64,000 bases of DNA from Verrucomicrobiota bacterium. GTDB lineage: Bacteria > Verrucomicrobiota > Verrucomicrobiia > Limisphaerales > JACDHS01. The stretch lies in contig JACDHS010000004.1 in NCBI GenBank assembly GCA_013820875.1, forward strand, positions 20,563 to 84,562, in the 5' to 3' direction. A program made the translations under genes and the position numbers. Shown one piece after another: positions 184 through 60,281 of the stretch (positions are counted from its first letter, which is position 1; each line of letters opens with the position of its first letter). A model generated the notes under the pieces. It was given only the letters and a program-made list of their open reading frames with translations, made no database searches and was not told the DNA's origin.

Positions 184-605
184 GTGGGTAACACAGTGTG
201 CGGGCGTCGTTGCCGCAGTTTCCGAGTGGGCAACACACTGTGCGGACGTCGTTTCCGCAGTTTCAAAATGGACAACACACTGTGCGGACGTCGTTTCCGC
301 AGTTTCCGAGTGGACAACACACTGTGCGGTCGTCGTTCCTGGAGTTTTAAAATGGACAACACACTGTGCGGTCGTCGTTCCTGGAGTTTTAAAATGGACA
401 ACACACTGTGCGGACGTCGTTCCTGGAGTTTTAAAATGGACAACACAGTGTGCGGACGTCGTTCCTGGAGTTTCAAAGTGGGCAACACACTGTGCGGTCG
501 TCATTCCTGGAGTTTCAAAGTGGGCAACACACTGTGCGGTCGTCATTCCTGGAGTTTCAAAGTGGACAACACACTGTGTTGCCCACGTTCCTGGCGACCT
601 AAAGT
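184..605. repeat. 42-bp tandem repeat, about 10 copies
   Basis: Core (C/T)AACACA(C/G)TGTG recurs at 189, 231, 273 ... 567, an exact 42-bp spacing; no unique spacers. Confidence 0.97.
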
Positions 606-1032
606 GAAAAACCCCTTATTTTTCAACAATTCGCCCGAATGAAGCTTTCTCACCTGTCCGCCAAACACGCGAAATCAATAGTACAGAGATCAAGTGTGAG
701 GCATTACATCCGGATAGCTCGCCCTTCCTAAATCGCCAGGAATTGCGTAGCGAGCGCGATAAACTGTGAACAAATCGATATGAATACTTCGGTGGCTATC
801 GTCTTGATCAATGGCTTTGCTATAAAACAATCCAGCAGGTCAGAAAAAACCTAAAATGGTGTGAAAAATGTCGATGCTGCGTCCGGATTGTTTCCGGCGG
901 TGGACCGTCAGATAGCTGAAAGACCGATCACTATGTGCGGCGGAATTAAAACGTCTTTCCGCGTTCCTCCTGGTCAGGGGGGCATCTGAAATAAATTGAA
1001 TTTTCGAAAAGTACATAAATCATACAAATAGA

Positions 1033-1632
1033 ATGAAAAAACTCCTGATTGTTGCCGGTGTCCTGTGCGCAGTGGGTGCTGCATTGGGGGTGGATGTCTT
1101 TCCGAAATATTCCAAGAGTTCCATAACGGCCCAGATTCCTACGAACACGGTTGGGTACATCAAAGACGCAGCTTTTGAGCTGGGAACAAACGTGGTTTAT
1201 ACGTTGAACGGTCAGATTTTTATCAACAGCGCCAACGGAAACATTCAGACCGTTGCCGAGGGATTCAGTGGGGCCACGGATAAAAGCACACCATGGAAAA
1301 CTTTAACAGAGCTGTTGGCCGTTTATCAGCAGGGTGTCACCTCGAATAAGGTGGCGGCGCTCTATACGCCCGATTCTCAGGAGTTCCTTGACGAGATTTT
1401 CACCGATGCAGAAGTAACCACCAGATTTAAGGAGTTTAGCTCTTCAATTACCAACATGCAGGTGCTGATGGGTTTTGACCTTTCGAATGGCTTTTATGCT
1501 ATTACCTCCTTCGGATCCACGGGAAATCCGCCGGACAAAATGCCTTTTTTTTTGTCAAAACCAATGGTCAGTATCGTTTGTCCACTTATGACAGTGATGA
1601 AACAAACGTCTCGAACATTGGAGTGTTCCTAA
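1033..1632 (+). CDS. Secreted hypothetical protein, probably frameshifted at T9 (1545-1553); alternative end 1664
   Basis: MKK plus hydrophobic signal peptide; the shifted frame after the T run reads FVKTNGQYRLSTYD...NLLP*. Confidence 0.7.
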   Translation: MKKLLIVAGVLCAVGAALGVDVFPKYSKSSITAQIPTNTVGYIKDAAFELGTNVVYTLNGQIFINSANGNIQTVAEGFSGATDKSTPWKTLTELLAVYQQGVTSNKVAALYTPDSQEFLDEIFTDAEVTTRFKEFSSSITNMQVLMGFDLSNGFYAITSFGSTGNPPDKMPFFLSKPMVSIVCPLMTVMKQTSRTLECS

Positions 1633-1707
1633 ACACCCATTCGGTTACCAATCTCCTTCCATGACGAGTGGCAGAACGTTACTTGATGTGAGTATCCAGC
1701 TTAGACC

Positions 1708-2778
1708 ATGAGTCCTCGTGGTTTCTTTTTACTGATCCTGACGCTGTTCTCAACCGCTGTCGTTCTCTTCTTCCAGCTTAAAACCGATATTTGGACGAAT
1801 TGGCTCCGCCAGTGCGTTTCTCGAAATTACTCGAACACAGTGGGAGTGATTACGCATAGCGGAGTGACGGAACGGGATGTCGCACCTCCCGATTCCATTA
1901 CCGTCAAAATAGGAAAGGAGAAAAGTGTTTATGCGGTTTCAGTTCGGTATCGTTATGAAGTTGGCGGCAGGGTGTTCGAGGGGGAACGCTTTCGTTACAA
2001 CAGCTTCCCATCATCGGCAGCGGATGCCGTGTGGGCGAAGTCAGTAGTCGCGGATTATCCGATAGACTCGGAAGTGCAGGTTTATTACAACCCGGCAAAT
2101 GCTGCTGATTCGGTAATCTCGCCTGGTTTAGCGGGGCGAGATGTGGTGCTGCTGATGTTTATGATTCCCTTCAACTGCATGATGTTTGGCCTATGGGTGA
2201 TGTCTGTATCCTGGTTGCGACGAAACTTATTCAGTCCTGTAGCCGGCGGGGTCAAGGTGCGGCGCGAAGGTCAGGTGGTGAATGTTTGGCTTCCTCGGTT
2301 TATGCCGTCCCTGATCGTTCTGGGATTCGTTGGTCTTTCTTCTTTCCTATCGGTCTTTGCCCTGGGAACAAATCCCTCATTTTTGACTGCCCTGGTCGTG
2401 TGTGGTGCGATTTTCATTTCAGCCATTGCTCTTTACGCGTGGCTTTGGCGTAAAATTCATTTCGAGGACCAATATTTGATGATAGACCACGGGGCTCGGC
2501 GGATAAGATTACCGAAAGCTTTTGGTCGAAAAGAACGCCTGACGCTTCCCTTTGAAGATGTTGTGGATATTACGACAGAAGCGATTGCGCGTCGCAATCG
2601 AGGGAACATCACTTATACGTTTGCGCCGACATTGCACGCGAGAAATGTGCCAGGAGGACCATTTAAACTTGCGAATTGGCGTGAACGAAAGAGAGCTAAC
2701 TCGTTCACCCGCTGGTTGGGTGAACAGCTTGGACTGAATTCGTCGGGTGATTCTGGATCGCCCGAAAGGGACATCTGA
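1708..2778 (+). CDS. DUF3592-like membrane protein
   Basis: TM helix, VRYRYEVGG...VQVYYNPANAADSVI pattern, further TM helices. Confidence 0.75.
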   Translation: MSPRGFFLLILTLFSTAVVLFFQLKTDIWTNWLRQCVSRNYSNTVGVITHSGVTERDVAPPDSITVKIGKEKSVYAVSVRYRYEVGGRVFEGERFRYNSFPSSAADAVWAKSVVADYPIDSEVQVYYNPANAADSVISPGLAGRDVVLLMFMIPFNCMMFGLWVMSVSWLRRNLFSPVAGGVKVRREGQVVNVWLPRFMPSLIVLGFVGLSSFLSVFALGTNPSFLTALVVCGAIFISAIALYAWLWRKIHFEDQYLMIDHGARRIRLPKAFGRKERLTLPFEDVVDITTEAIARRNRGNITYTFAPTLHARNVPGGPFKLANWRERKRANSFTRWLGEQLGLNSSGDSGSPERDI

Positions 2779-3220
2779 GATCGTTGGGAAAGCGCTCCGT
2801 CTCCCAGTCAACGATTCCGACGAGTCTTGATGCGATGTCGCGTGGATCGGTCACCTGCAGCACCGATGGACTTCCTATACGGGCACGGGGCGCAACATCT
2901 TTGGATCGAACGTTCTCTTTGGACACGGACGCCCTGGAGCCATCAAGTATGTGGATGCTGAATATCTGATGAGTTTTTCGCACCTCTGGGGGATTCCGAG
3001 AAAAAAGCATTTTACGAACTTTTTGTCTCGAATGACCAGAAGTCCATAGAGACAAAGGTGAATTTTTGAAGAACTCATTGAACGACGCTCTGAATGAGCG
3101 ATGGGGCTGCCCGGCAACGCGCAGGGGTCTCCGCTGTGAACAACGGCGGCGAAAACGGGCCCCTCGGATTAGGCGTTTGTTAGCGCAGATTAGCGGTTTA
3201 GTGATTTTTGAACTACCGGA

Positions 3221-4654
3221 TTACTTCTTTGAACCAGCTTTGCGGGCTCGCGCTATTGTCGATTCATACTCCGGGCGCTTTTGCCATTCAGGGAAGTAAC
3301 GTTGATACTCGGGCAGTTCTGTCCAGAAGCGCGGTTCAGGGTCGGCGGGAATCACTTTGCCTTCCGGATAATCTTTTCCGGCCACGCTCGCTTCGACCGA
3401 TTCATTCCACGCGAGCAATGCTTCGTGCAATCGCTTTGCAATTTTCGGTTGTTCGCTGGAAATATCCCGCGTCTCTTTCGGATCGGCTTGCAGGTCGAAT
3501 AGTTGGAACTTTCCTTTCGCAGATTTTTCGATCAACAGCTTGTAATTATTATCGACAAGCGCTGCGCCGCCTTGAAAGCGGAAAGGAATCGGCTTGCTCC
3601 GTTTCTCAACCGCTGTCGCAAACAATGGTCGCAGACTTTCACCATCCACCGGCTGCACCATGGCCTCTTGCGGAAGCTTCGCGACATCCGCAACGGTCGG
3701 AAAAATATCCATCGTGCTGGCTGGGTAAAGAGTCGTTCGCGGCGACTTGATTGCCGCAGGCCATTCAATGATGCCGGGGACGCGAAGTCCGCCTTCAAAC
3801 AGCGAACCTTTAAATCCTCGCAAGCCATTCACAGTATCAGGCTTGATGCTGCCGAGACCTCCGTTGTCGCTGCAAAACATCAGCAATGTGTTGTCGGCCA
3901 ACGCGAGTTCGCGCAATCGCTTCCGCAACGTGCCGATGCTCCGATCCATTGCCACCAATTCGCCATAGTGATCTTGCGACTCCTCGGACAGCGCGGAGAA
4001 AGCAGCTTTGTCCTGGTCAGAAGCCCGGAAGGGTGAGTGCGGTGTTCCATACCAGATGACGGCGAACATCGGCTTGTCACTGCGATGATGGCGTTCGATG
4101 AACTTCAACGTTTCGCCGACGGCGATTTCCGAGGAGTCGCCTTTGAACTCTTCAATTTTTCCCTGGCGGCTCAAGAGCGGATTCAAATCGTAAAAATTCG
4201 ATGTCGAGACCCATTCATCAAAACCGAACGCGCCGGGATGGCGTTCATCGGAAGAGAGAATCGGCGCACCGGGTCCGCGTAATCCGTTGAGGTGCCATTT
4301 CCCAAAATGGCCGGTCACATAGCCCGCTTTGCGGAGTGCCTGGGCGATGGTCCTCTCCTGGAGTCGCAACGCGTAACCGTGACTGAGAACCCCGGTGCGA
4401 TCATTGGAACGTCCCGTCAACACACTGGCGCGAGTCGGCGAGCAGACAGGCGCCCCGGCATAAAAGCGATCGAGACGAAGTCCGTTCGCGGCCATCGCAT
4501 CGAGGTTCGGCGTCTTGAGGACGGGATGATTGTAATAACCTGTTTGGCCCCATCCCATGTCATCGGCCATGACCAGGATGATGTTGGGGCGATCGGCGGC
4601 TTGCGTTATCAAAGCAACGAAGCAGGCAACGATGATCGAAAGGGCAGTCTTCAT
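3221..4654 (-). CDS. Sulfatase (formylglycine-dependent), secreted
   Basis: [15 protein letters not shown] motif, GKWHL, SDNG; signal peptide. Confidence 0.95.
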
Positions 4655-4687
4655 TTCAGCGATGATTGGGAGACGGTTTTACAAAAA

Positions 4688-6229: not shown

Positions 6230-6254
6230 AGATTAAAAAGCGCGATGGATTTGT

Positions 6255-10461: not shown

Positions 10462-10478
10462 GGCGTGGAAAACTGCGA

Positions 10479-15321: not shown

Positions 15322-15552
15322 TTGCCGCGCTCCGCCTGCCTTCTCACCTACTTTCAATCACCCCCTCCCTTCTCTCCGGGCGCATTTCGATACTGCGACG
15401 GATCCCCCGAGCGGGTGTAAAAGGGCTGAGTTATCACAAGCGAAGCAGCGTGTCGATTTGCTACGTTTGAGACCCGAAGAGAAAATTGGCCCTTTTCCAG
15501 CCGAATATCCCACCAAAATACTCAAAAGTAGAGAAAATGGGCTGTTTATCCA

Positions 15553-15842
15553 TTTTTTCGTTCTGTTTTAGAACCCTGGTTGGCCAACTTGCCGTCAAAA
15601 CAGAACAAAAAAGTAGCAGGGTTGGCCAACCAGGTATCCAAAACAGAACGAAAAAGTAGGTGGGTTGGCCAACCAGGTGTCCAAAACGGAACAAAAAAGT
15701 AGCAGGGTTGGCCAACCAGGTGTCCAAAACAGAACGAAAAAGTAGGTGGGTTGGCCAACCAGGTGTCTAAAACGGAACGAAAAAGTAGGTGGGTTGGCCA
15801 ACGAGGTGTCTAAAACAGGACGAAAAAGTAGCGTGGTTGGCC
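15553..15842. repeat. 43-bp tandem repeat (about 6 copies) preceded by an inverted partial unit
   Basis: GTTGGCCAAC palindrome at 15579, 15621, 15664, 15707, 15750, 15793 and partial at 15836. Confidence 0.96.
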
Positions 15843-15972
15843 CCTTCCCTCGCAGCATTAAAAGTGGGTGAGATTGACTAGGAAACGGAGCGGTTGCGCC
15901 GCGCTCCGTCTGCCACCACCCACTTTTATTCGCACCCCTCCCTGCCCTCCCTGACTTTAGGGTCTTTGCCTG

Positions 15973-16003: not shown

Positions 16004-16061
16004 AGTGCATTCCCTGTAGTTCTGTGTCCGAACGTCCTTGTCCCTTAACCTTATTAAACCT

Positions 16062-17450
16062 ATGAAGTATACTAAAACTAAACTCTTGGCATTGCTGGTG
16101 ACGACTGTCGCCGCAACGAGTCTGCAAGCGCAGACCACGCCTGCACCACAACCCAACATCTGTAACCGTGCCTGTTGGAGCGCCCGCTCTTCAAGCTGCA
16201 GCACATCGCTCGGCTCCCTGACCCGCGCCATCATCCATCACACCGCTGGACCCAGCGATTACACGACCAATTACGAGACTGGAAAGTCCAGAATGCGTTC
16301 CAATCAGAACTATCACATGGATAGCAACGGTTGGTGCGATATCGGTTATCACTTTTTGGTGAACGCAGCCGGCCATATCTACGAAGGCCGTGTCGGTTCA
16401 ATCGGTTCAAGCGGCGGTTGGAAAAAGGGTGCCCATGATGGTTGCAATTCCAACAGCATGGGCTTCACTGCGCTGGGTTACTTCCACACTCCTTACAATC
16501 ATGCCTTTACGCAAGCGTTGCAGGATGGTCTCGCGGCTGTAATTGCCTGGAGAATGCCAAGCGGTTGGGCTGCGCATGGCAGCGGCACCTATTGCGGAAA
16601 TTCTGTCGGCACCCTGGATGGCCATTACAAGGTTAAAGCCACGGCCTGCCCTGGAACGAACATTATCAATGGACTCGGAAATCTTCGTAACAATGTTGCG
16701 AACCGCAGAACATCCGAAGTCAATAATGCGGCTGTTGTTTCCATGAGTTTCCCAAGCTCCGTAGTCAAGGGGTCAAGCTTCTCCGCAACGGTAACCATGA
16801 ACAATAACGGCACTACCCATTGGGTCGTTGACAATGGCTACAGGCTCGGTTCGCAGAACCCACAAGACAACACTCGCTGGGGACTTAGCCGTGTTAACGT
16901 GGTTGGGACGGTCAGCCCAGGTTATAATTCAGCCTTCACCTTTAATTGCACCGCGCCAACCACCGCTGGCACCTATCCGTTTGACTGGAAGATGGTGCGG
17001 GATGGCGTCCAATGGTTTGGCGCCACCGCAGTCGGAACGATTATCGTGGAAGAGCCAAGTAACGCCGTCATCGTTGATAACCAGGCCGCGACTTATGTTG
17101 GATCCTGGGCAACTGCCAGCTCAGCCACCGATAAGTACGGCGCTGATTATCGCTATCGCTCCACCGCAGCGGTAAGCGAGCCTGCTATCTTCACCGCCAA
17201 CCTCACTTCTGGCAGTCGCAATGTATATGCCTGGTGGACGCAAGGTTCAAACCGCTCCGCAACGGCTCCTTACATTGTCTATCACTCGGGTGGAACCACC
17301 ACCGTCCAAAAGAATCAGCAGGTCAACGGCGGTTCCTGGCAATTGCTGGGTAACTGGACCTTCAATTCTGGTAACAACGATGTCAGGCTCTCCTGCTGGA
17401 CGACCACCGGCTATGTTGTCATAGCTGACGCCGTCAAATGGGGTGACTAA
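16062..17450 (+). CDS. Secreted PGRP-like N-acetylmuramoyl-L-alanine amidase with Ig-like and golvesin-like C-terminal domains
   Basis: IIHHT, GWCDIGYHFLV, IYEGR, GAH, TACPG zinc-amidase motifs; C-terminal VVIADAVKW. Confidence 0.88.
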   Translation: MKYTKTKLLALLVTTVAATSLQAQTTPAPQPNICNRACWSARSSSCSTSLGSLTRAIIHHTAGPSDYTTNYETGKSRMRSNQNYHMDSNGWCDIGYHFLVNAAGHIYEGRVGSIGSSGGWKKGAHDGCNSNSMGFTALGYFHTPYNHAFTQALQDGLAAVIAWRMPSGWAAHGSGTYCGNSVGTLDGHYKVKATACPGTNIINGLGNLRNNVANRRTSEVNNAAVVSMSFPSSVVKGSSFSATVTMNNNGTTHWVVDNGYRLGSQNPQDNTRWGLSRVNVVGTVSPGYNSAFTFNCTAPTTAGTYPFDWKMVRDGVQWFGATAVGTIIVEEPSNAVIVDNQAATYVGSWATASSATDKYGADYRYRSTAAVSEPAIFTANLTSGSRNVYAWWTQGSNRSATAPYIVYHSGGTTTVQKNQQVNGGSWQLLGNWTFNSGNNDVRLSCWTTTGYVVIADAVKWGD

Positions 17451-22914: not shown

Positions 22915-23115
22915 TATGCAGGGAAAGCCCTATCATATGCAATCTTCTATGCCGTTCGTCGTAAGTATCCAGCTCGGAAGCGTTGTTGTGGGCGAAGCAT
23001 CAGCCGCAACGCGTGAGATTGTTTGTGCATTTATCGGAAGCTCTAAAGCGCTGCATCCCATCTTATGACCGCTCCGGCGGATGCTTCCCACAAACCCAAC
23101 AGAGATAGGACGCGG

Positions 23116-24363
23116 TTACGCCGCGCTCCGTCCCAAACGACCATCCGCCCGGCTTCGGTCATAAGCGCAGCAGACCTCTTCGAATACCTGATCCACTGTG
23201 ATCTGTTGCATGCAAAGGTTGTTGGTGCAACGGGTTTGCCGATTGTTGTAGGCATTCACACAAGGACTGCACGCGATGCCAGCCCAGACAGGAGTGTTGC
23301 GCGGAGTCGGCGCAGCAAACAGTCGGGGGGTCTCCGGTCCGAAAAGAGTTACAACCTGGATCGCAGTCAGCGCGGCAAAGTGAGCAGGCCCACTGTCATT
23401 GGTGACCAAAACCCTCGCCAGCGAATAGGCAATGAGCAATTGACGCAGGGTAGTTTTTCCGGCCAATGAAAAACAGCGGGCGGAGCCTACATCCTTCACG
23501 AGAGCTTCCGCTGCTTCGACTTCGTTCGGGGCACCCGTGAAACCAACGTATGCGCCTGGATACTTCAGCAGCAGTCGCCTGGCGAGCTGGACATAGCGTT
23601 GCATCTCCCAGCGACGCAGCGGAAGCAGATCGCTGGCGTTCGGATTTAACAACAGGATCGGCGGGAGTTCGCCTTGACCTGTTTCACTGGCCAACAACTC
23701 GCGAACCACTTCAATTTCCAAAGGTGCGGCAACAAACCTCGGCAATTCTTCGCCCAACGGCGGCGGGGGCACTGGCAACGTTGGCAATTGTTCCCGCGGG
23801 TGACGAAGCGCTTCGACCAGCAATTGGAACATTTGCGCCGTGTGAAGGTACGGATTGTAAAGCAACCGGTGTGTGAACAGGTCACCGCGATAAGGCCCCG
23901 CTCCAAAAAACGCATGAAACCCAACGCGCAGTTTGGCGCCAGTCAAAAGCGTGAACGCGGCGGACCCGCGAGCAAAAAATTCCATGTCGATCGCAGCATC
24001 GAGTTTCAGCTTTTGCAGACGGACCAGCGCTTTGCCGGCGGAACGTGTCAAAACAGCGGGGCTGCTGTAGGTAATGGGAACGACATTTTCTTCTGGAATA
24101 AGACCGAGAGCATCCAAAATGAACCGGTTGTCATCGAAGCAGGCGACATAAACATTTTCACGTCCGACCATTTCCGTTGCCACGCGAATCGCTGAATAGG
24201 CGAGAACCGTGGAGCCCTGCTCCGCGAGTTTCACAAACAAGATCCGGCGCAGAGGTGGAGGAGAAAACGTTTTCCGACCAAATAATTTTCGAAAAACCGT
24301 TAAGCCAAAGCACAGCGGCACGCCAATATAGCGGTCAATCTTCTGGAGTGCGGCGACTTTCAT
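23116..24363 (-). CDS. Glycosyltransferase family 9 (heptosyltransferase-like)
   Basis: LAGKTTL, VTNDSGPAHFA, LFGP, CSPC. Confidence 0.92.
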   Translation of the reverse strand: MKVAALQKIDRYIGVPLCFGLTVFRKLFGRKTFSPPPLRRILFVKLAEQGSTVLAYSAIRVATEMVGRENVYVACFDDNRFILDALGLIPEENVVPITYSSPAVLTRSAGKALVRLQKLKLDAAIDMEFFARGSAAFTLLTGAKLRVGFHAFFGAGPYRGDLFTHRLLYNPYLHTAQMFQLLVEALRHPREQLPTLPVPPPPLGEELPRFVAAPLEIEVVRELLASETGQGELPPILLLNPNASDLLPLRRWEMQRYVQLARRLLLKYPGAYVGFTGAPNEVEAAEALVKDVGSARCFSLAGKTTLRQLLIAYSLARVLVTNDSGPAHFAALTAIQVVTLFGPETPRLFAAPTPRNTPVWAGIACSPCVNAYNNRQTRCTNNLCMQQITVDQVFEEVCCAYDRSRADGRLGRSAA

Positions 24364-24582
24364 GGGTGAAAAGCCAGATTATAGGAAAACCCGTAGGCAT
24401 CAAAGTTTTTCGTGACCCGCCCAGGCAGAGGGGGTGATTTTAGAACGGTTGGAATGGGCGCGCTTGAGCGCAAACGGAGCGCTTCGTTCAGCTCCACCAG
24501 GTTTGCGTTCGCCTCGCCCGTGAGCAGCAAGCGATAAAACGACATCGGGAGGGTAAAACTTTGATATCGCGGTTCCAACCAG

Positions 24583-24695
24583 CGGCGCGCACGGAGTGCG
24601 ACGCCCTACCTTTTGAATTTGCGACAGACGAGCTGTAAACTGTGGGATTGACGATAAATGCGGAAAGGTAGGGCGCGTCACTCCTGTGCTCGCCG
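24583..24695. repeat. Inverted pair of GTAG-type REP-like elements
   Basis: CGGCGCGCACGGAGTGCGACGCCCTACC (24583-24610) and GGTAGGGCGCGTCACTCCTGTGCTCGCCG (24667-24695). Confidence 0.8.
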
Positions 24696-24821
24696 TTCAT
24701 AGGTAATGTTGGAACGACTGGATTCCCTGTAACAACGGCGACGAAACCTGCCCCGACCCGTAAAACCCTCCCATTCTTACGTTTACAAAGACCAAAACCG
24801 GAAAAATCACCAGTTTTCCCA

Positions 24822-25187
24822 CGTAACCGAGACCAAATCCGTTCGGATCGGGTCTCGGTTAGCGTAACCGAGAGGCAATCCGTTCGGATCGGGACTCGGT
24901 TAGCGTAACCGAGAGGCAATCCGTTCGGATCGGGACTCGGTTAGCGTAACCGAGAGGCAATCCGTCCGGATCGGGTCTCGGTTAGCGTAACCGAGAGGCA
25001 ATCCGTCCGGATCGGGTCTCGGTTAGCGTAACCGAGAGGCAATCCGTTCGGATCGGGTCTCGGTTAGCGTAACCGAGAGGCAATCCGCCCGGATCGGGTC
25101 TCGGTTAGCGTAACCGAGAGGCAATCCGCCCGGATCGGGTCTCGGTTAGCGTAACCGAGGGGCAATCCGTTCGGATCGGGTCTCGGT
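24822..25187. repeat. 41-bp double-hairpin tandem repeat, 8 full copies plus partials
   Basis: AATCCGTTCGGATCGGGTCTCGGTTAGCGTAACCGAGAGGC starting at 24836, 24877 ... 25164. Confidence 0.98.
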
Positions 25188-42897: not shown

Positions 42898-43097
42898 TCC
42901 GGCAGTTGCTTGCTTAACCGCTGATCTTCGCTAATAGGCCCCAATGGGAGTAGCGGAGCGAAACAAAGGATTTCACCCAACAAACGGTGCCCCCTTTTCT
43001 TCCATTCCCACTGCCGAGAAACCGGTTTAAGATCCCGGCACTGACGCCTTGCCTCAAGTGACTTCAAAAGGAAAAGCTGAGTTTGGGCGCAAAATGA

Positions 43098-43430
43098 CGA
43101 AAAAAGGGATTTTTGACACCCAACACACCTTGCTGAGGGTCAAAAAAGCCTTTTTACGACCTCCGCAAGGTTTGCGGACAGTCAAAAATCCCTTTTTTGA
43201 CACCCAGCAACCTTTGCTGACTCCCCAAAAACCCTTTTTCGACACCCAACACACCTTGTTGAAGGTCAAAAATCCCTTTTTGCGACCTTCGCAAGGTTTG
43301 CGGACAGTCAAAAAACCCTTTTTGAGGAGTGCGCAAGGTGTGTTGACAGTCAAAAATCCGTTTTTTGGCGGCCAACACACCTTGCTGACTCCCAAAAATC
43401 CCTTTTTTGCCGGTCCGCAGACCCTCCACG
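43098..43430. repeat. Degenerate 42-bp quasi-palindromic tandem repeat, about 8 copies
   Basis: T tract after the A5-CCC block starts at 43151, 43193, 43235, 43277, 43319, 43361, 43403. Confidence 0.93.
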
Positions 43431-43482
43431 GGAAGCCTGAAAAACATTTCAAAACTCCGCCAACTGCCGGTTTAATTAAGGA

Positions 43483-49833: not shown

Positions 49834-49840
49834 GGTCTCC

Positions 49841-52661: not shown

Positions 52662-52754
52662 TGTGAGTGCATATTGCTGACAGGGCAATGCGATGTAATG
52701 TTTGAAAGCTATGTGCGCCTCGCCGCGCGCAGTCGAAAAACTCGGGAAAACCAC

Positions 52755-52783
52755 TTGCGCCATGTTGTAAACATCGTTAGTTT
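52755..52783 (+). promoter_or_regulatory. Sigma-70-type promoter of tRNA-Lys
   Basis: TTGCGC-17 bp-TAGTTT followed by GC-rich discriminator CGCCGCGC. Confidence 0.55.
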
Positions 52784-52823
52784 TCGCCGCGCTTTGACCC
52801 GAAAAGGTCTAAGTTCCTCAAGT

Positions 52824-52899
52824 GGGCTGGTAGCTCAGTTGGTAGAGCAGTGCCCTTTTAAGGCATTTGTCCAGGGTTCGAGTCCCTGCCAGCCCACCA
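52824..52899 (+). tRNA. tRNA-Lys(UUU)
   Basis: 76-nt cloverleaf: GGGCTGG/CCAGCCC acceptor stem, loop CT-TTT-AA, TTCGAGT T-loop, encoded CCA. Confidence 0.97.
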
Positions 52900-52912
52900 T
52901 TTCTTTTTCCGT

Positions 52913-53158
52913 ATGGCTTGGGTTTACATATTGCGAGGCACTCGTGGACGATATTATATCGGCGCGACGGACAATTTTGATCGTCGATTTGCTGAACATT
53001 GCAACGGAAAAGTCCACACCACCGCACGCTTGGGATTCCCTCTGGAAATTGTGTGCAAACGCGAATTGCCGTCTTTCTCGGATGCTTTGGTCCTCGAACG
53101 GGAGTTGAAGAAATTAAAGAATCCAAGATTCGCAATCTCTCGGTTGCAATCTGGTTGA
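52913..53158 (+). CDS. Small GIY-YIG nuclease family protein
   Basis: WVYIL...YYIGAT...RR..EH...ALVLERELK. Confidence 0.9.
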   Translation: MAWVYILRGTRGRYYIGATDNFDRRFAEHCNGKVHTTARLGFPLEIVCKRELPSFSDALVLERELKKLKNPRFAISRLQSG

Positions 53159-53162
53159 CGTT

Positions 53163-53235
53163 GTTGGTAGAGCAGCCCCGATTTTCGGGGTTTGTCCAGG
53201 GTTCGAGTCCCTGCCAGCCCACCATTTCTTTTTCC
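53163..53235 (+). pseudogene. Partial tRNA-Lys duplicate with rewritten anticodon arm
   Basis: Identical to 52838-52910 except the 15-nt anticodon arm; lacks the 5' acceptor strand. Confidence 0.9.
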
Positions 53236-53288
53236 ATGACGGTGGTTTACAACGAAGATTGCCATCAGGTGCCGCCTGGATGTCGAGT

Positions 53289-56200
53289 TCAGTCTTCTGT
53301 TCGCGTTCGGTAGTATTGGTGAGGCAAACTTTCGAGGCGGGGATCACTGAAGTGCCTCGGTGCATTGGTAAATGTATTCGTCAGAAGCGGAATCCAATCG
53401 AGCAGGTCGCTGGAGCCTTCCAGAATGAATGTTTGCCCTGAGACGCCCTCGATGCTGAAGCCGAATCCATTCGTTCCGAAACCAAATTGGCCATCGTTCA
53501 AAAGGATCAGCGGCGGAGTTGCTGCCGTTTGAAGAACCTCCTCCAGGAACCAACTGGACGAGTTCCCGTTGATAAACCCACGCGCACGGAGCATGGCACC
53601 GGGCGAACTCGATACACCGCTCCACTGCCAACCGCCCGGAATCCGTGTTCCTGTTCCCACACTGGTCCATACCGCTTGATCAGAAGAAATTTCCAAAGTG
53701 GCTGCTTCAACTTCAGAGCTAATTCCACCTCGCAGCCACTGGATTTCCGAATCATTGCGGCTCAGACTATGAACGGGCGGAGCTGTGTAGCTAAGCCGTC
53801 CAATGTTTTTGCGTGCTCGTCCGTATAAGGTTGTGAAGCTGCCACCAACGAGAGTTTTTCCATCGGCCTGAATGGCCAGAGAGAACACTGCCGAGTTGGT
53901 TCCAGCCACATCCATGTCGAAGGCGGTATCCAAACTGCCATCGCTATTAATACGTCCCAGTCCGTTTCGAGATCCTCCGGCCAGATTGGAAAACGCTCCT
54001 CCCACTAAGATTTTTCCATCTGCTTGCGCAACCAACGCACGGACGTAAGAATTGGGCTTCGGAGCAAAGGCAGTATCCAGAATACCGTCGGAATTGAACC
54101 TTACGAGGTATGATAGAGCTGAGTTGCCATTGTAGCTGAAGAGTCCACCGACAATCACCGCGCCGTCTGGCTGGAGTGCTAATGTGAACACCCACTGGTC
54201 CGATGATGACGAGCCCCATGTGTATATGTGGTCAAGGTTGCCACTGGAATCGAACCGGACTAGATGATGAGTTGGACCCAGGTTGCTCGGAAGGAAGCGA
54301 CCTCCGGCAATGATTTTTCCGTCCGTTTGAACCTGCATCGACTCCACTGCGGATAGATAGGTAAGAAAATATGGACTGGACCGGCTAAAAGAAGAATCCC
54401 AACTGCCATCCGAATTCAGGCGAATCAAAGGATAGACAGGCACTGGAGGTGTGGAATTCGGAGCATAGCCTACTAGAATTTTTCCATCAGGCTGAAGCGC
54501 CAGGCAGGAAACAGTCCCGTCAATATACGGAGCATAAGACTGATCGAGAGTGCCATCTGCATTCAAACGGCCGATAGACGTGCGCGTCTGCCCCGCCAAA
54601 TTCGTGAACGAGCCTCCCACCACGATTTTCCCATCGGTTTGCACAGCCAGAGCGCGGACGCCGCCGCCACTCACGCTCACATTGAAACTATCGTCACGCC
54701 TGCCGTCGGAATGAACGCGGGCGACACGGTTGCCGGGTGAGTTGGTGAAGTTGCCACCCATCACGATTTTACCGTCGGGTTGTATGGCCAAAGCATTGAC
54801 GGAACCGTCTGCGTCTGGATTAAAACTATCCGCATACCTGGGCCAGACATGAATGGTTTGACTTTGCATACTGCCGAGGGAATTCGTGACCACTACATGG
54901 TATGTGTCTCCGGTTGGCAAAGGTGCAGACACGTTGAGAGAGAAATTCGTCGCACTGCTTATAAGCACTCCGTTTTTGTACCATTGGTATGACAAAGGAC
55001 CGCTACCTGTTGCGGTGACACTAATAGTAGCGCCAGCCGTTATGGGTATCCAAAGGTCTCCCGTTTGAGCGGTGATCACTGGCGAACCAACCGAACTCTC
55101 GAGCACACTGGCAGAACCGTTATTATAGCCACCAAGCACAACGGCTCGGGCCCGAAGGGTGGCCGAAGAAGGAATATCAACACCTGTTGCTCGCCATCCC
55201 CCTGCAATTCGTTCGGCCGCAGGCAGGGCTGACCAGGAGGCACCGCTCCAATATTCAAAGCTGACCCGGTTTGCCTCTGGACTACTGCCGCCACGCAACC
55301 AGGTGATGGTTGAATTCTCAAGGGCAAGTGTTTCAGTGACTCTCGATGAACTGTTCAGACGCCCAATGTTTGAGCGCGATATTCCCCACAAATTTCCGAA
55401 AATGCCGCCTGCAAATACTTTTCCATCTTTACGTGGAGCCAAGCAGTGTATGTCGCCCGTGAAACTTGGATTGAAAATGGCGTCCACCGTTCCATCTGGA
55501 TGCAATTGGGCAACCCCCATATGAGTTTGTCCTCCCAAGGTGCCGAATGCACCAGCCAACAGAATCCTTCCATCTGCCTGGAGAATAATCGAACGAACCG
55601 TGTTGTTTGCTTCGGGCCGAAATGCCAGATCCAGAGAGCCGTTTACGTTGAGTCGGCCAATTCGTTGGCATGACTGTCCTCCCAGCGTGGTGAAATGGCC
55701 GCCGACAAGAATTCTCCCATCTTTCTGCACGACAATTGATCGAACCTCGCCATTGGCATTCGGGTTGAAGCTTCCGTCCAGTGAACCGTCTGAGTTGAGG
55801 CGGCCAATTCGCTGGCGTGACTGCCCGCCGAGGTTGCTGAACTGTCCACCGACCAGGATTCGTCCATCAGGCTGCAAAGCAATGCAGTTTACAATTGTGC
55901 CGAAGTTCATTACAGGATTGAAAGCGGCATCCAACGAACCATCCGCATTAAGGCGTCCGATCCCCTTTCTGGCCTGACCGGTGAGAGTTGCGAAGGAGCC
56001 TCCAACGAGGATCTTGCCGTCCGATTGCACGACACAAACATTCACGTTGCCATCTGCTCCTGGATTGAATTCCGTATCAAGGCTGCCGTCAGCATTCAAC
56101 CTTCCAATCCGGCTCCTTGATTGCCCCGCCAAAGTTGTAAACGCGCCTCCCACCAGGATCTTCTCATCTGGTTGAACGTTCAGGCAAAATACGCTGTTGT

Positions 56201-58022
56201 TGGCTCCTGGGTTGAAAGTTGTATCCAACGCGTCATCGGGACGAAATCGACCTATGAAATTTCGCTGTGAACTGGCGAGCACTGTGAATTGTCCACCGAC
56301 CAGGAGACCGCCGCCCGGTTGCAACGCCATTGCATAAACGCCTGAGTTGGCTCCGGGATTGAATGAGTCAGCTCCGAAAGAACTCAAGAGCGCTGGTTGA
56401 CTTCGGATGCTGCCAAGTGAGCTGCTTACCAACACTTCGAACGCATTCGCCGCGTTCTGAGCGCTTGGTGGGCTTGCCGTCCAAAATGAGCGTGTTGCAC
56501 CGGCCAAAGCCGCTCCGTCTCTGAACCACTGATACGAAAAGGGACCGGTTCCGACAGGTGCCACGTTGAATCGCACTTGAGCAGTGGTTCCCACAAATCG
56601 GTCACTGGGCTGGCTGCTCAGAGCGGGTGAACCAATCCCACTCTCGACGAACCATTCGGATCCACTGCCGTAGCCACCCCGCAAATAAGCCCGGGCTCGA
56701 ATCGTAGCATTGGACGGCAGGGCAAGACCGGTTAATTGCCATCCACCTGACACTCGTTCAGGAACAGAAAGATCAAGCCAATCCAGACCATTCGTGGAGT
56801 AAGCAAGGGAGGCACTGCTTGCTTCCGGGCTGCTGCCACCGCGCTGCCAGGAGATTGTAGAACCCTCTAAAGTGAGGCTTTGAACCGCAGGCAAATTATT
56901 GTTCAATCGTGCGATCCGACTTCGAGATGAGCCTCCAATTGAAGTGAAATTGCCACCTGCCAATAGTTTTCCGTCCGCCTGAAGCGCGAGGCAATAGACC
57001 GCAGCGGAGGCACTTGGATCGAAGGTGTCCAGAGTGCCATCCAGATTCAACCGCACTATATTCGAGCGTGACTGACCGCTGACACTATCGAAGCTACCGC
57101 CTGCCAGAATCATGCCGTTCGCCTGCACGGCGAATGTGCGAACATCGCCGTTTATTTCCGGATGGAAGTCGGCGTCAATGGATCCGTCGGTGTTCAGGCG
57201 ACCGATATGTAATCGTGTAAGGCCTCCAAGAGTATTGAATTTGCCGCCTGCGAGAATTTTCCCGTCTGCTTGCAAGGCGAGGCAGTATACCGCCTCGTCG
57301 GCTTCTGAATCAAAATCGTCGTCGAGTGAGCCATCTGGATGGAAGCGCGCGATCTTGTTCCGCCCGCCCTGGGCGCTCGTAAAGTTTCCGCCTGCGATAA
57401 TCTTTCCGTCTGGCTGCAGGGCCAGTGAATAGACGGAGTCGTTGATTGCGGGACTAAAGCTTTCGTCGAGCGAGCCATCTTCGTTGAGGCGTCCAAGATA
57501 GGCGCGCGCCACGCCCGAGAGCGTTGTGAACGAGCCACCCACGAGGATCTTTCCGTCAGGTTGTGTCGCCATGACATAAACGTTTGTGTCCGCTCCGGAA
57601 TTAAAGAAAGGATCCAGGCTGCCATCCGCATTCAGTCTGGCGATACGACTGCGGCTTTTGCTTGTAAGGTTTGTGAAAGCACCGCCAACAAGAATTTTTC
57701 CGTCAGGCTGCACACTGAGACAATAGACAGGAGTGCTGGCTGGGCTGGTTATTCCCGGGCTGAAAGTTGTGTCGAGCGAATCGTAACCATAATCGAAATG
57801 AAACCGCCCGAGCCCATTACGGGTCGAACCTGCCAGACTTCCAAAAGCTCCGCCAACCAACAAGTTGCCATCCGCTTGCACTGCGAAGGCATAAACCGTG
57901 TTGCCTGCTCCTGGATTAAAACTGTCAGCAGTTTGGGAATGAAGTGGCGCAGCGAAGCTGAACACGAAGAGCATTATAAGACAAAATGCTGAATTAATTC
58001 TAAAGTGATGGACTGGTTGCAT
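53289..58022 (-). CDS. Large secreted delta-60 repeat / Ig-like domain protein (start reassigned to ATG at 58022)
   Basis: Many QPDGKILVGG.F...RLN.DGSLD.FNP repeats in three blocks; GPxSYQW Ig-like domains; LEGSSDLLDW C-terminal domain. Confidence 0.92.
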   Translation of the reverse strand: MQPVHHFRINSAFCLIMLFVFSFAAPLHSQTADSFNPGAGNTVYAFAVQADGNLLVGGAFGSLAGSTRNGLGRFHFDYGYDSLDTTFSPGITSPASTPVYCLSVQPDGKILVGGAFTNLTSKSRSRIARLNADGSLDPFFNSGADTNVYVMATQPDGKILVGGSFTTLSGVARAYLGRLNEDGSLDESFSPAINDSVYSLALQPDGKIIAGGNFTSAQGGRNKIARFHPDGSLDDDFDSEADEAVYCLALQADGKILAGGKFNTLGGLTRLHIGRLNTDGSIDADFHPEINGDVRTFAVQANGMILAGGSFDSVSGQSRSNIVRLNLDGTLDTFDPSASAAVYCLALQADGKLLAGGNFTSIGGSSRSRIARLNNNLPAVQSLTLEGSTISWQRGGSSPEASSASLAYSTNGLDWLDLSVPERVSGGWQLTGLALPSNATIRARAYLRGGYGSGSEWFVESGIGSPALSSQPSDRFVGTTAQVRFNVAPVGTGPFSYQWFRDGAALAGATRSFWTASPPSAQNAANAFEVLVSSSLGSIRSQPALLSSFGADSFNPGANSGVYAMALQPGGGLLVGGQFTVLASSQRNFIGRFRPDDALDTTFNPGANNSVFCLNVQPDEKILVGGAFTTLAGQSRSRIGRLNADGSLDTEFNPGADGNVNVCVVQSDGKILVGGSFATLTGQARKGIGRLNADGSLDAAFNPVMNFGTIVNCIALQPDGRILVGGQFSNLGGQSRQRIGRLNSDGSLDGSFNPNANGEVRSIVVQKDGRILVGGHFTTLGGQSCQRIGRLNVNGSLDLAFRPEANNTVRSIILQADGRILLAGAFGTLGGQTHMGVAQLHPDGTVDAIFNPSFTGDIHCLAPRKDGKVFAGGIFGNLWGISRSNIGRLNSSSRVTETLALENSTITWLRGGSSPEANRVSFEYWSGASWSALPAAERIAGGWRATGVDIPSSATLRARAVVLGGYNNGSASVLESSVGSPVITAQTGDLWIPITAGATISVTATGSGPLSYQWYKNGVLISSATNFSLNVSAPLPTGDTYHVVVTNSLGSMQSQTIHVWPRYADSFNPDADGSVNALAIQPDGKIVMGGNFTNSPGNRVARVHSDGRRDDSFNVSVSGGGVRALAVQTDGKIVVGGSFTNLAGQTRTSIGRLNADGTLDQSYAPYIDGTVSCLALQPDGKILVGYAPNSTPPVPVYPLIRLNSDGSWDSSFSRSSPYFLTYLSAVESMQVQTDGKIIAGGRFLPSNLGPTHHLVRFDSSGNLDHIYTWGSSSSDQWVFTLALQPDGAVIVGGLFSYNGNSALSYLVRFNSDGILDTAFAPKPNSYVRALVAQADGKILVGGAFSNLAGGSRNGLGRINSDGSLDTAFDMDVAGTNSAVFSLAIQADGKTLVGGSFTTLYGRARKNIGRLSYTAPPVHSLSRNDSEIQWLRGGISSEVEAATLEISSDQAVWTSVGTGTRIPGGWQWSGVSSSPGAMLRARGFINGNSSSWFLEEVLQTAATPPLILLNDGQFGFGTNGFGFSIEGVSGQTFILEGSSDLLDWIPLLTNTFTNAPRHFSDPRLESLPHQYYRTRTED

Positions 58023-58168
58023 AGTGGATTCCCTGCTTTTGAAAACTGAAGTCCAGAGCTTTGAAAGGCAAGGCCGAACCGGCGCAAAAACCCGACTTAT
58101 CGGCGGGGCTCGGCATCTTACTCCATGGAGAAATTCACATTCAGATAGGCCGTTGCAAATGGCCGGAT

Positions 58169-58531
58169 TTACATGATGAAAACCTGCTTGCCACTCCGGA
58201 CAGATTGCAAGGTGGCGCGGTTGGACTTTAGGATTTGAATGGCCGTTTCGTTGGGAAGTTGAAACTGGTTCAAGCTGTAGCTGACCAGGGTATCGCCGTT
58301 CTGCGCTGTTACACACGCTGTATCTTCCACCTCCACTCCCTCCAAGGCTTGATGCCTGGCCGCACAGAAACCTTTGCCTGTGGGACCGACGATCCATTCG
58401 ACTGCATTGACCAGATGAGTCAGCGCATCCTGGATCAAGCCGCCGCCGGTTTCATGGTTGTTGTAATAGACGTCGCGGTAAGCCGGGCGAAGGCCGGGAT
58501 CCCAGGCGTGGCTGTGAACATCAACGATCAT
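58169..58531 (-). pseudogene. Chimeric remnant: amidohydrolase N-terminus joined to Gfo/Idh/MocA oxidoreductase fragments
   Basis: MIVDVHSHAW then GGGLIQDALTHLVN...EVEDT; no Rossmann N-terminus. Confidence 0.7.
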
Positions 58532-59640
58532 GAAAGCTTTCCTCGCGCGTCCACCGTGATCTTGCGCAACGAACCATCCGCTTCCAGCCACCAGATTGCA
58601 TCCTGCAAATTGACACAGGGACAAATGTGATTGGGAATCACGGAAACGCGTTCGCCGACTTTGGGCCGTTTCTCGCAGCGCGACACATCCACCTGGCCAT
58701 GCTCCTCGCTCAACGCTGAAATGCGGGCGGCTGGATACTCTATAATGTGACCATGCCCGCTCTCCTTCGCTGGCCCACAGAGATCGCTTGTGAAAGTTTT
58801 CGACCCTCCATCAAGGACAACCTGGCTTTCCACCGCGTCACTCACCACCGTGCAAATGATTTGCGCCGCGCAATCTTCCAGCGGGCAATAGCCGCCCCGG
58901 ACGATGTTCATATCATTGAAGACATACGTGCCCGGACGAATTTCTGTATATTCCTTGACCAGGTGGGATTGAAAAGCCGTGGGCGTTGATCCGCCGGAAA
59001 CGATCCCCGCCGACAAACCGCTTTTTGCCCAGAGATCAATGGCTTCCTGGAGTTTCACTGACACTGCAGCAAGAGGTGCTGCTTGTTGCTCAACCGATTG
59101 CCCAATGTGGCCGGGATAACACAGGATTCCATCCAATCGCAGACCGCGGCTCTGATCGATCAACTGGGCAAGCGCCAGCGAATCGGACGCAGTCGCCACG
59201 CCGACGCGTTTCATCCCGACATCCATTTCCACGAGCACACCAATCGTGCTGTTCGCAGATTGCGCCGCGGCGGCCAGGGCTTCCACACCAAAGGAACTAT
59301 CCGCCACCACGCGCATCGTCCGGGAGTGAGCCAGTTCCGCGAGGCCTTTGCATCGGGCCAGATCCACGGCGGGATAAGCCATCAACAGATCTTCTGCTAC
59401 CGCCTGCAGTTGCTCGGCTTCTCCGACTTTGGCAACGGTCAGCCCAATCGCGCCTGCCTCAATCTGCAAACCGGCGATGAACCGGCTCTTATGGGTTTTT
59501 GTATGCGGACGAATGCCAAGATTGTGCTGCGACGCGTAGGTGGCAAGTCTTTGGATATTGCGGCGAACGATCGCTGCATCCAGGACTAGTGCTGGGGTCG
59601 GTAACTCCGCGAGGTTCCTCGCTTGATCCAAGTCTTTCAT
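58528..59640 (-). CDS. Fold-type III PLP enzyme (D-threonine aldolase / DSD1 family)
   Basis: RPHTKTHK, SGGSTP, EIRPGTYVFND, SEEHG, PNHIC. Confidence 0.92.
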   Translation of the reverse strand: MKDLDQARNLAELPTPALVLDAAIVRRNIQRLATYASQHNLGIRPHTKTHKSRFIAGLQIEAGAIGLTVAKVGEAEQLQAVAEDLLMAYPAVDLARCKGLAELAHSRTMRVVADSSFGVEALAAAAQSANSTIGVLVEMDVGMKRVGVATASDSLALAQLIDQSRGLRLDGILCYPGHIGQSVEQQAAPLAAVSVKLQEAIDLWAKSGLSAGIVSGGSTPTAFQSHLVKEYTEIRPGTYVFNDMNIVRGGYCPLEDCAAQIICTVVSDAVESQVVLDGGSKTFTSDLCGPAKESGHGHIIEYPAARISALSEEHGQVDVSRCEKRPKVGERVSVIPNHICPCVNLQDAIWWLEADGSLRKITVDARGKLS

Positions 59641-59847
59641 TTTATGATGTTGATGGCGTTGCTGGGCGGGGTTGCGGGAGCTTTGCTCATATCAAGTAGG
59701 TACCGATTCCAACATGGGAGCAACTTCCGTTCAACACCAAAGTACAAATAGAAAATCCGTGGAATCCCAAAAAGCAGTTAACCTAAATCCGGCAGGTTCA
59801 ATACCGCTGATCTACGCTAATGACCGCTAATCAGAGGGGGATTGCAT

Positions 59848-59973
59848 TTTGGACTGCGCTGGCAGAGCGCAGCGGCGACAGCGCTTTCGGGCGTATTAAG
59901 CACCAGGAAATTGAAAACTCCGCATTGGGCGTCCGAAAGCGGTGTCGCGCTTCGCTTGCCACCGCAGTCCAAA
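59848..59973. repeat. Inverted pair of GC-rich palindromic interspersed repeats
   Basis: TTTGGACTGCG...GACAGCGCTTTCGG versus CCGAAAGCGGTGTC...CGCAGTCCAAA. Confidence 0.85.
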
Positions 59974-60029
59974 TTCGTCTCCTCGTGACCGGATAAAATA
60001 TCGGTTGTCCCAGCAACCTTGTCCCAGAC

Positions 60030-60281
60030 CACGTTTTTGAAGGTTTCAAAACTTTTTTTCTGGCTCCAAAATTATGCGCGGAGATTTTTAAGCTCCATAT
60101 TTGGTTCCAAAATTATGTGCGGAAGTTTTTAAGGTCCATTTTTGTCTCCAAAATTATGTGGGAGCTTTTTGAAACTCTTTTTTTGGACGCAAAATTAATT
60201 TTAGAAGTGTTTAAGGTCCATTTTTCGCCCCAAAATTAATTTTGGAACTTTTTAAGGAGCTTAAAAACATTCAAAACACGT
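60030..60281. repeat. Degenerate AT-rich 41-bp tandem repeat, about 5-6 copies
   Basis: AAAATTA at 60068, 60109, 60150, 60191, 60232. Confidence 0.9.

Follow-up and report, generated by a model that had tools for sequence, protein, structure and literature searches.

Why should five tandem arrays that share no evident sequence be built from units of nearly the same length? The question is raised by a stretch of 64,000 nucleotides from a Verrucomicrobiota bacterium (contig JACDHS010000004.1, positions 20,563 to 84,562), here called the window, in which a preliminary description had noticed five intergenic arrays with periods of 41-43 bp. Arrays were detected with Tandem Repeats Finder (TRF), in the window and then in the whole genome to which it belongs (G000; 5.70 Mb in 239 contigs, the window being C37:20563-84562), and relatives were sampled with the same settings. 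All genomes used are short-read metagenome bins. On balance, and with slightly more belief than doubt, we read the five arrays as members of one lineage-restricted class of non-coding minisatellites of about four helical turns, carried in non-autonomous mosaic elements, the period being both inherited and constrained.

Run on the window, TRF recovered all five arrays and no further array with a period above 12 bp (Table 1); the coordinates first given were slightly wider because they included degenerate end units. The five units fall into five different k-mer families, and none of the 10 pairs among them belongs to the significantly similar unit pairs described below, in agreement with the lack of evident sequence similarity first noticed. 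Read directly from the sequence, the arrays consist of head-to-tail units without spacers; they carry ordered unit variants and unique flanks on both sides, and the units at the edges are degenerate versions of the inner ones. A CRISPR array was ruled out: it is the whole 41-43-bp unit that repeats (71-96% matches), with no spacers. The arrangement of the adjacent genes, taken from open reading frames and Pfam domains, is as mixed as had been noticed: array 2 has tandem neighbours, array 4 has convergent ones, and arrays 3 and 5 are each flanked by a divergent pair.

Whole-genome analysis of G000 yielded 483 collapsed, non-overlapping arrays, 244 of which have a period of 40-43 bp; the next commonest classes are those of 8 bp (33 arrays) and 7 bp (29 arrays). 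The preliminary description had named a flat distribution of periods as evidence against its idea; the outcome is the opposite, a strong peak at 40-43 bp throughout the genome. When every locus with a TRF row of period 40-44 was counted, 270 arrays were obtained, with periods of 40 bp in 3, 41 bp in 109, 42 bp in 114 and 43 bp in 44 (mean 41.74, SD 0.74). Together they occupy 62,784 bp, or 1.10% of the genome. Their unit number has a median of 6 and reaches about 11 at most, and their matches have a median of 90%. When the 270 unit consensuses were clustered by k-mers, 43 loose families resulted, or 94 clusters under strict clustering; the loose families have 32, 29, 25, 24, 24, 16, 14, 12, 11 and fewer members, and 17 are singletons.

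The arrays had been proposed to be non-coding, and this extends to the genome at large: 156 of the 270 periods are not multiples of 3, and 245 arrays overlap gene calls, which for this purpose were crude longest-ORF (open reading frame) picks, by less than 10% and are therefore intergenic. Coding or MIRU-like in-frame repeats were ruled out on the same 156 periods. Arrays lie in 87 tandem, 46 divergent and 26 convergent spacers, the numbers for all spacers being 2392, 614 and 643; divergent spacers are moderately over-represented (46/159 arrays against 614/3649 spacers) and convergent ones are not avoided. Orientation relative to flanking tandem genes is unbiased (31 same, 26 opposite). At the gathering threshold no Rfam family was found on the arrays, only a tRNA elsewhere; in E-value mode array 3 matched only plant and animal miRNA-hairpin models, far below threshold, and array 1 matched nothing.

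A reading of the arrays as independent local inventions was not borne out: they are multi-copy dispersed families set in conserved leader and tail arms. In the window the per-base genome copy number exceeds one over 100-250 bp on one or both sides of every array; along the tail of array 1, for instance, it drops from 21 to 7 between positions 601 and 700. The left and right flanks of about 20 family 1 loci align for 95-170 bp past the array. In family 3, that of array 2, the leader measures 100-225 bp and the tail about 45 bp; the arms of family 4 (array 4) measure 50-175 bp. Colinear arm profiles were found in families 0, 3, 4, 5 and 6, and overall the arms comprise a conserved leader and tail of 50-300 bp, variably truncated. 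The arms also cross family borders. Among flanks of 1.5 kb, 390 of 470 match the flank of another array, with the signal concentrated within 300 bp of the array, and common array-proximal arm segments link 32 of the 43 families in one network. One tail arm (…GAAGCTTCATCCGGGCGAATTGTCGAAAAATAAGGGGTTTTTCACTTTAGGTCGCC.GGAACGTGG) abuts four unit types, f1a, f1b, f2 (which includes array 1) and f27. Loci with one unit (51) or two units (37) within the same arms make up part of the 280 internal loci, and they exist alongside loci of 6-9 units. As judged from these alignments, every array forms the centre of a small mosaic element, dispersed in the genome, of the form leader-array-tail.

Some copies of families 1 and 5 are bounded by a terminal inverted repeat (TIR), CCTAAAAACGGCAGTT…, together with 5-bp direct duplications. 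The duplications were seen by eye at five array-bearing copies (ATAAA, GTAAA, GTTAA, TCCAC and ATCAA) and at four array-less copies, one copy being mismatched, with no systematic count. In C69:59472 and C74:12880, two copies bounded by the TIR, a leader homologous to that of array 3 is enclosed. These ends, again with 5-bp duplications, also delimit an array-less family of MITEs (miniature inverted-repeat transposable elements) of about 180 bp, such as C53:21551-21731 and C227:193-373. A 16-mer resembling the TIR lies within 300 bp of 33 of the 270 arrays, where 3.6 would be expected. An empty orthologous site, which the preliminary description had suggested looking for, was found for one array of a relative (G004), which sits between genes whose orthologues in G000 are only 179 bp apart. 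Transposition in trans thus accounts for at least part of the class; for the remaining elements we infer it from the dispersed near-identical copies, their random orientation and the empty orthologous site.

Two candidates were rejected. The MITE with CCTAAAAACGGCAGTT ends is not a general vehicle, being near only those 33 of the 270 arrays and at background level in the other four array-bearing genomes. A co-distributed HUH nuclease had been suggested as well; the Y1 domain PF01797 is present, irrespective of arrays, in 28 of the 31 genomes examined from the order, and a HUH/RAYT link was rejected on this co-distribution, assessed at the level of the domain. Separately, the MITE 16-mer also occurs at C37:129-144, a position flanking the window.

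The relatives were sampled and not scanned whole, over about 3 Mb outside G000. Arrays of 40-44 bp were found in another member of the same genus, g1 (G001, 17 arrays in 299 kb), and in three members of a second genus of the family, g2 (G002, 6 in 318 kb; G004, 4 in 205 kb; G005, 3 in 61 kb). These 30 arrays in 883 kb have periods of 40 bp (1), 41 bp (17), 42 bp (10) and 43 bp (2), and in the range of 25-110 bp the same 883 kb hold only one other array, of 33 bp. Their units are unrelated to any unit of G000. No such array turned up in the samples of g3, the family's third genus (G003, 198 kb), of six other families (G007, G008, G009, G023, G027 and G030, 377 kb together) or of eight further families (G006, G010, G014, G015, G016, G020, G021 and G029, 398 kb together). 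In 1.24 Mb around ptsI from 80 other Verrucomicrobia (L029-L108), three weak arrays were detected, with at most 3 copies and 60-81% matches. The peak that the preliminary description had proposed to seek in relatives is thus present in four sampled genomes of two genera, and the common period is non-random both genome-wide and lineage-wide. On these findings the array class characterises a small clade, comprising g1 and g2 in the present sample, and not a single genome or repeat family.

Outside the focal family, arrays of this kind were noticed only in a distant Verrucomicrobiales bin (L089, JBBIJZ010000001.1, positions 1-1293), where weak arrays of 42 and 63 bp, both multiples of 21, lie near ptsI, and in one two-copy case in L062. 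Within the family, an unrelated array occurs near the orthologous gene in G001, G002 or G005 for two arrays of the window and a few from elsewhere. Given the density of arrays, about 4 of 22 such coincidences within about 2 kb are to be expected, and positional conservation is therefore not claimed.

Part of the common period is inherited. Pairs of family consensuses are similar beyond shuffles in 39 of 903 cases, against 4.5 expected, and five unit families (three subtypes of family 1, family 27 and family 2, that of array 1) align over 42 columns with no internal gap at a mean identity of 70%. Periods vary within six of the loose families and four of the strict clusters, with two or three in each, which means that insertions and deletions do sweep through arrays; none of the 300 arrays (270 in G000 and 30 in relatives) lies outside 40-43 bp. 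Comparison of f27 with f1a by eye showed GTTTCCGG two columns later in f27 and the remainder of the unit two bases shorter. On sequence grounds this +2/-2 shift is a compensated pair of indels.

The units had been described as having a palindromic core. This is correct on average over the 270 units; single units fold unexceptionally (best z -1.75). The longest perfect stem has a mean of 5.9 against 4.4 in shuffled units, and stems of at least 7 were found in 88/270 units against 8/270. The unit of array 3 is a hairpin in itself (TAACCGAGA…TCTCGGTTA; fold -7.6 kcal/mol, z -1.75). Dyads were surveyed in 73 largely independent units, one for each of the 43 families of G000 and 30 from relatives. 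At least one dyad is present in 56/73 units (214/730 shuffled) and two separate dyads in 23/73 (22/730 shuffled); the two are spaced 20-21 bp apart in 13 of these 23 and in 2 of the 22 shuffled cases. In the alignment of five families, 71.6% of the cells in dyad columns are paired, against 63.4 ± 1.9% in shuffles, none of 500 of which reached the observed value, and only 27-45% when the dyad structure is slid along the alignment. Dyad cells changed on both sides number 21, against 9.6.

A further claim, that an inverted copy of part of the unit stands at one end of each array, is visibly true of array 1 (right end) and array 2 (left end); in the genome the feature is common without being universal. 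Under a strict test, 45 of the 176 arrays that could be assessed have such a copy, against 0 in a control of distant flanks, and in 42 of the 45 it is at one end only. Folding of DNA gave -9.1 kcal/mol (z -1.1) for the right end of array 1 (540-600) and -12.5 kcal/mol (z -1.8) for the left end of array 2 (15535-15620).

A quarter of the mean period of 41.74 bp is 10.4 bp, a normal value for the helical repeat of DNA. When A/T steps were compared with a tract-preserving shuffle, the fourth harmonic, of 10.5 bp, was enriched 1.25-fold in the families of G000 (p 0.042), 1.28-fold in the relatives (p 0.049) and 1.26-fold in both combined (p 0.013); it is the sole A/T-step harmonic enriched in both data sets. 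Together with the dyads these signals, modest as they are, suggest a need for each unit, and often each half unit, to lie on the same helical face as the one before it, as phased bending or the cooperative binding of a dimeric protein would require. The proposal that the arrays are phased docking sites gains modest support from the combined harmonic (p = 0.013) and from the dyads 20-21 bp apart (13/23).

The explanation that we favour can be put as follows. The number of units would change by slippage or unequal exchange, and unit families would diverge by substitution and by indels that cancel each other, keeping the unit near four helical turns and the dyads at fixed places, often half a unit apart. 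The constraint would most likely be that successive units present the same face of the helix, either through phased bending or through a DNA-binding factor that reads structure, the latter being a candidate agent only. Otherwise the elements may be selfish DNA. A bolder version, which we regard as doubtful while still taking it seriously, is that the two genera of soil Verrucomicrobiota have a trans-acting "four-turn ruler" that reads shape and not sequence, either a DNA-organising protein or a repair or recombination activity. Such a ruler would create or select arrays with 41-43 bp repeats and dyads on one helical face; the hundreds of sequence-unrelated arrays would then be phased docking or bending platforms, and mobile carriers of them would be favoured.

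Several observations weigh against the favoured explanation. On the side of constraint, the DNA of single units folds no better than shuffles, the structure of the dyad columns was drawn from one of the aligned families and the aligned rows are related, which inflates scores of this sort, and the helical-phase signal is weak, with p of about 0.04 in each data set for one of eight harmonics, chosen a priori. On the side of mobility, TIRs and duplications were seen in a minority: 11 TIR pairings enclose arrays, 8 distinct elements were observed, all of families 1 and 5, and families 0, 3, 4 and 6 have almost no CCTAAAAACGGCAGTT TIR. Occurrences of the TIR 16-mer (at most 2 mismatches) number 142 in G000, 67 in G008 and 23 in G010, with only background in G001, G002, G004 and G005. 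No transposase was found inside TIR pairs, and pairs more than 1 kb apart enclose ordinary genes only, although bins may lack insertion sequence copies. The roughly corresponding neighbourhoods in G001 and G005, occupied by unrelated units, fit local rebuilding as well. As to the assemblies, 80 of the 270 arrays touch contig ends, the Logan contigs of sequencing run X1 break at arrays 2 and 3 and none bridges either, and in short-read bins neither the counts of units nor their apparent ceiling, at about 11, can be relied on.

An artefact of assembly or binning of short reads could in principle create or distort the arrays. Both the contig ends and the unbridged breaks would agree with it; yet the same period class appears in five bins, the arrays have ordered unit variants and unique flanks on both sides, and in independent Logan contigs the array words reach a summed depth of 215-722 against 14.5 for unique sequence, which fits high-copy families, so that an artefact is hardly credible. 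It is also very improbable that the arrays work at the RNA level, as transcripts processed into hairpins of about 42 nt or as terminators or attenuators, with a period set by the processed RNA. Short inverted repeats are indeed over-represented in the units, array 3 has a hairpin unit, and BOX and BrickBuilt, two elements compared below, are described as transcribed or promoter-active in their hosts (PMC3049150; PMC4596501). Against this, the arrays have no orientation bias relative to their neighbours and lie in convergent, divergent and tandem spacers alike, no Rfam family reaches threshold, the folds of 3 of the 5 window units are no better than shuffles, and many stems consist of A-T pairs only.

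Two other alternatives were weighed. Arrays could be built de novo by a dedicated lineage-specific process with a molecular ruler, for which an integrase-like enzyme that by staggered cuts duplicates about 42 bp of any target, or hairpin-primed or template-switch synthesis, would be candidates, the dispersed families being secondary. The same narrow period in at least 43 families of G000 and in unrelated units of four other genomes from two genera, the 17 singleton families, the different arrays carried by one MITE backbone and one tail arm, the inverted partial unit with its one-sided position and absence from controls, the unrelated-unit arrays beside orthologous genes in G001 and G005, and the fact that the feature follows the clade and not any single element all speak for such a process. 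We nevertheless consider it unlikely: no candidate enzyme was found, the Y1 HUH domain being present irrespective of arrays; families are tied by unit-level descent and common arms; 14 of 27 arrays of small families still bear arms common to other families; edge units are degenerate forms of inner units, as in ordinary minisatellites; and loci of one or two units lie inside the same arms. Pure inheritance from one ancestral 42-bp element, with array-sweeping indels rare and neither function nor constraint, would in turn account for the excess similarity between families, the gap-free alignment of five of them, the common arms and the lack of orientation bias or of a strong context preference. 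It fares poorly with the period shifts fixed within families while all 270 and 30 arrays remain at 40-43 bp, with an SD of only 0.74 among families most pairs of which have no detectable similarity, with the compensating shift between f27 and f1a, and with the retained positions of the dyads and the 10.5-bp phase, and we judge it quite improbable. Inheritance combined with constraint, in elements moved in trans, remains the explanation that we prefer.

Table 1. Arrays, arms and associated repeats in the window (positions counted from its first nucleotide)
Feature	Position	Strand	Description
Array 1	190-578	none	TRF 42-bp unit x 9.3, 92% matches; family index 2, 25 arrays in the genome
Array 1 terminal palindrome	562-586	none	GTGGACAACACAcTGTGTTGCCCAC; last unit becomes an inverted copy of its own start
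Array 1 tail arm	579-690	+	CCCACGTTCCtGGCGACCTAAAGTGAAAAACCCCTTATTTTTC...; common to arrays of three other unit families
Array 2 leader arm	15350-15577	+	7-23 genome copies; alignment of 17 family 3 left flanks
Inverted partial unit	15554-15574		Last 21 bases of array 2 leader; long palindrome centred on GGTTGGCCAACC
Array 2	15578-15842	none	TRF 43-bp unit x 6.2, 88% matches; family index 3, 24 arrays
Array 2 short tail arm	15843-15932		CCTTCCCTCGCAGCATT; includes adjoining small inverted-repeat element; 8-11 genome copies; right-flank alignment
Array 3 leader arm	24550-24821	+	5-15 genome copies; includes 31-nt repeat at 24580-24610
Array 3	24822-25187	none	TRF 41-bp unit x 8.9, 96% matches; family index 5, 16 arrays
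Array 4 arm ("right arm" in family orientation)	42900-43109	-	TCCCTTTTTTCGTCATTTTGCGCCCAAACTCAG…; 5-13 genome copies; family 4 flank alignment
Array 4	43110-43407	none	TRF degenerate 42-bp unit x 5.6, 71% matches; family index 4, 24 arrays
Array 4 other arm	43408-43445	-	…GCCGGTCCGCAGACCCTCCACGGGAAGCC; common to family 4 left flanks
High-copy dispersed repeat	59750-60000	none	Non-tandem, abutting array 5; 35-40 genome copies
Array 5	60057-60257	none	TRF degenerate 41-bp unit x 4.4, 70-73% matches; family index 16, 4 arrays
24-nt dispersed motif	60322-60345	+	GGTTCCTCGCTGTTTTCGGTGGAA; 65 bp from array 5

The two degenerate arrays have higher-order periods, of 84 and 126 bp in array 4, which also has a sub-period of 21-22 bp, and of 82 bp in array 5. 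Neighbours of the window arrays, as identified by Pfam, are all ordinary genes: those for a glucose/sorbosone dehydrogenase (GSDH), an amidase, a heptosyltransferase, PurD, a Mrp-type ATPase, a methyltransferase, a D-serine-dehydratase-like enzyme and a GntR/LacI regulator. The PF10609 P-loop ATPase to the left of array 4 is of the Mrp/NUBPL Fe-S type. The sequence of the window was found in one DNA run (X1, probably the source sample) and in no RNA run, and was absent from two sister runs; the closest metagenome contigs, sought as strain-level relatives, encode proteins only 57% and 27% identical. One Logan contig of X1 (depth 15.9) skips 103 bases at 23008-23112, in the region of the start of the heptosyltransferase gene, with loose ends at 23131; the skip may be a strain variant or a repeat.

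The 24-nt motif beside array 5 is present in 51 copies in G000, 60 in G001, 23 in G002, 21 in G005, 9 in G004, 15 in G010 and 9 in G007, and also in G009 and G023; none was found in G003 or 18 other genomes, and the reversed control gave 0 everywhere. It lies within 300 bp of 11 of the 270 arrays, against about 2 expected, and of 0 of the 30 arrays in relatives. It is abundant in all five array-bearing genomes; as a common array terminus it was nevertheless rejected on these counts and on its presence in array-free samples. In G005 it was noticed as inverted pairs about 292 bp apart. Many copies are situated about 100 bp from contig ends. The motif may mark the end of a different mobile element or be a conserved regulatory site.

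Other repeats were observed beside the arrays. The G+C-rich 31-nt repeat in the leader of array 3 (CAGCGGCGCGCACGGAGTGCGACGCCCTACC) has about 15 copies in G000, and four G002 loci give exact or near-exact matches of 30-35 nt. A small element, about 75-100 bp long and with inverted ends GATTAAAAGTGGGTGAG / CTCACCCACTTTTAATC, is located at 15858-15932 and to the left of several family 3 copies; following the tail of array 2 it reads …AAAAGTGGGTGAG … CCACCCACTTTTAT…, and its end motifs flank other family 3 copies, so that it adjoins array elements directly on either side. A second tandem class in G000 comprises 62 arrays of 7- or 8-bp units, 17 of them of the GATGGAGT type, with a median of 7 and up to 17 copies (for example C19:21157-21250 and C39:4474-4576). 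These arrays are not near those of 42 bp; they were also seen at the contig ends of G001 loci L010 and L017, and are reminiscent of the heptamer repeats of cyanobacteria.

Two proteins encoded in the window were also noted. The protein at 16038-17450, with Amidase_2, Ig-like and Golvesin_C domains, belongs to a large paralogous family, dozens of partial DNA matches to which were obtained in G001, several of them clustered on one contig. A protein of 1702 residues with 18 DUF5122 beta-propeller repeats and an Ig domain is encoded at 53289-58397 on the reverse strand.

Should helical phasing or a measuring enzyme impose the period, these genomes would offer a natural experiment with hundreds of replicates, one that bears on how DNA shape, and not sequence, is read or written in bacteria. 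In practical terms, the arrays break short-read assemblies, as the number at contig ends illustrates, and they would make rich strain-typing markers for an abundant, uncultured soil group.

The minisatellite elements known in bacteria, such as BOX, BrickBuilt and MIRU, each form a single family. In open-access papers and preprints no report was found of dozens of unrelated families, within one genome and across a clade, kept at one unit length, in keeping with the preliminary description, which had recognised no described element of this kind. Among known systems, the REP/BIME and MIRU elements are likewise small intergenic repeats that occur in clusters, those of REP/BIME being palindromic. 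REP/BIME units alternate in orientation and depend on RAYT; such elements were ruled out here, the units being direct throughout, with an inverted end unit in 45/176 arrays, and the Y1 domain not tracking the arrays. The MIRU of mycobacteria are tandem units of 40-100 bp dispersed in intergenic regions, which keep reading frames, unlike the present units with their 156 of 270 periods that are not multiples of 3.

The present elements are best placed among composite MITE-like elements with a minisatellite inside, set apart by their dozens of unit families that all stay near four helical turns across a clade. The closest likeness in architecture is to two composite elements. As described (PMC4596501), BrickBuilt of Porphyromonas gingivalis consists of a leader, an array of 23-nt units, a tail and small TIRs, with arms variably present. 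As portrayed there, it shares with the present elements an intergenic array without spacers, differing leader and tail arms that are full, partial or absent, many dispersed copies and a varying number of units, as well as small inverted-repeat ends, which are clear here for some copies of families 1 and 5 only. Compared by description, BrickBuilt forms a single family, with 19 copies and a unit of 23 nt, in a single species, whereas some 270 arrays of at least 43 families with units of 41-43 bp were found here, with several kinds of arm and the same period in two genera. The second element is BOX of Streptococcus pneumoniae, whose boxB module is 45 nt long. BOX is described as made of boxA, boxB repeated n times and boxC, and related species have other end modules around the same middle module (PMC3049150). 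It is thus, like the present elements, a composite, non-autonomous intergenic element whose middle module is in tandem in variable number; as far as that account goes, it has a single family of middle modules and no convergence of several families on one period.

The closest likeness in the units themselves is to sopC, the best-known array that serves as a phased docking platform for a protein. A ParB-type partition centromere was ruled out here by the 270 loci and by window neighbours that are ordinary genes and not a parAB-type operon. The sopC centromere of plasmid F is built of 12 direct 43-bp repeats, and SopB binds the 16-bp inverted repeat that each of them contains (PMC3177203). Unit length, direct head-to-tail order, a number of about 10 units and a dyad-symmetric site in the unit are common to both, the likeness being one of form only: sopC, as described there, is one plasmid locus beside sopAB, whereas the arrays described here occupy hundreds of chromosomal loci, have many different dyads and lie among ordinary genes.

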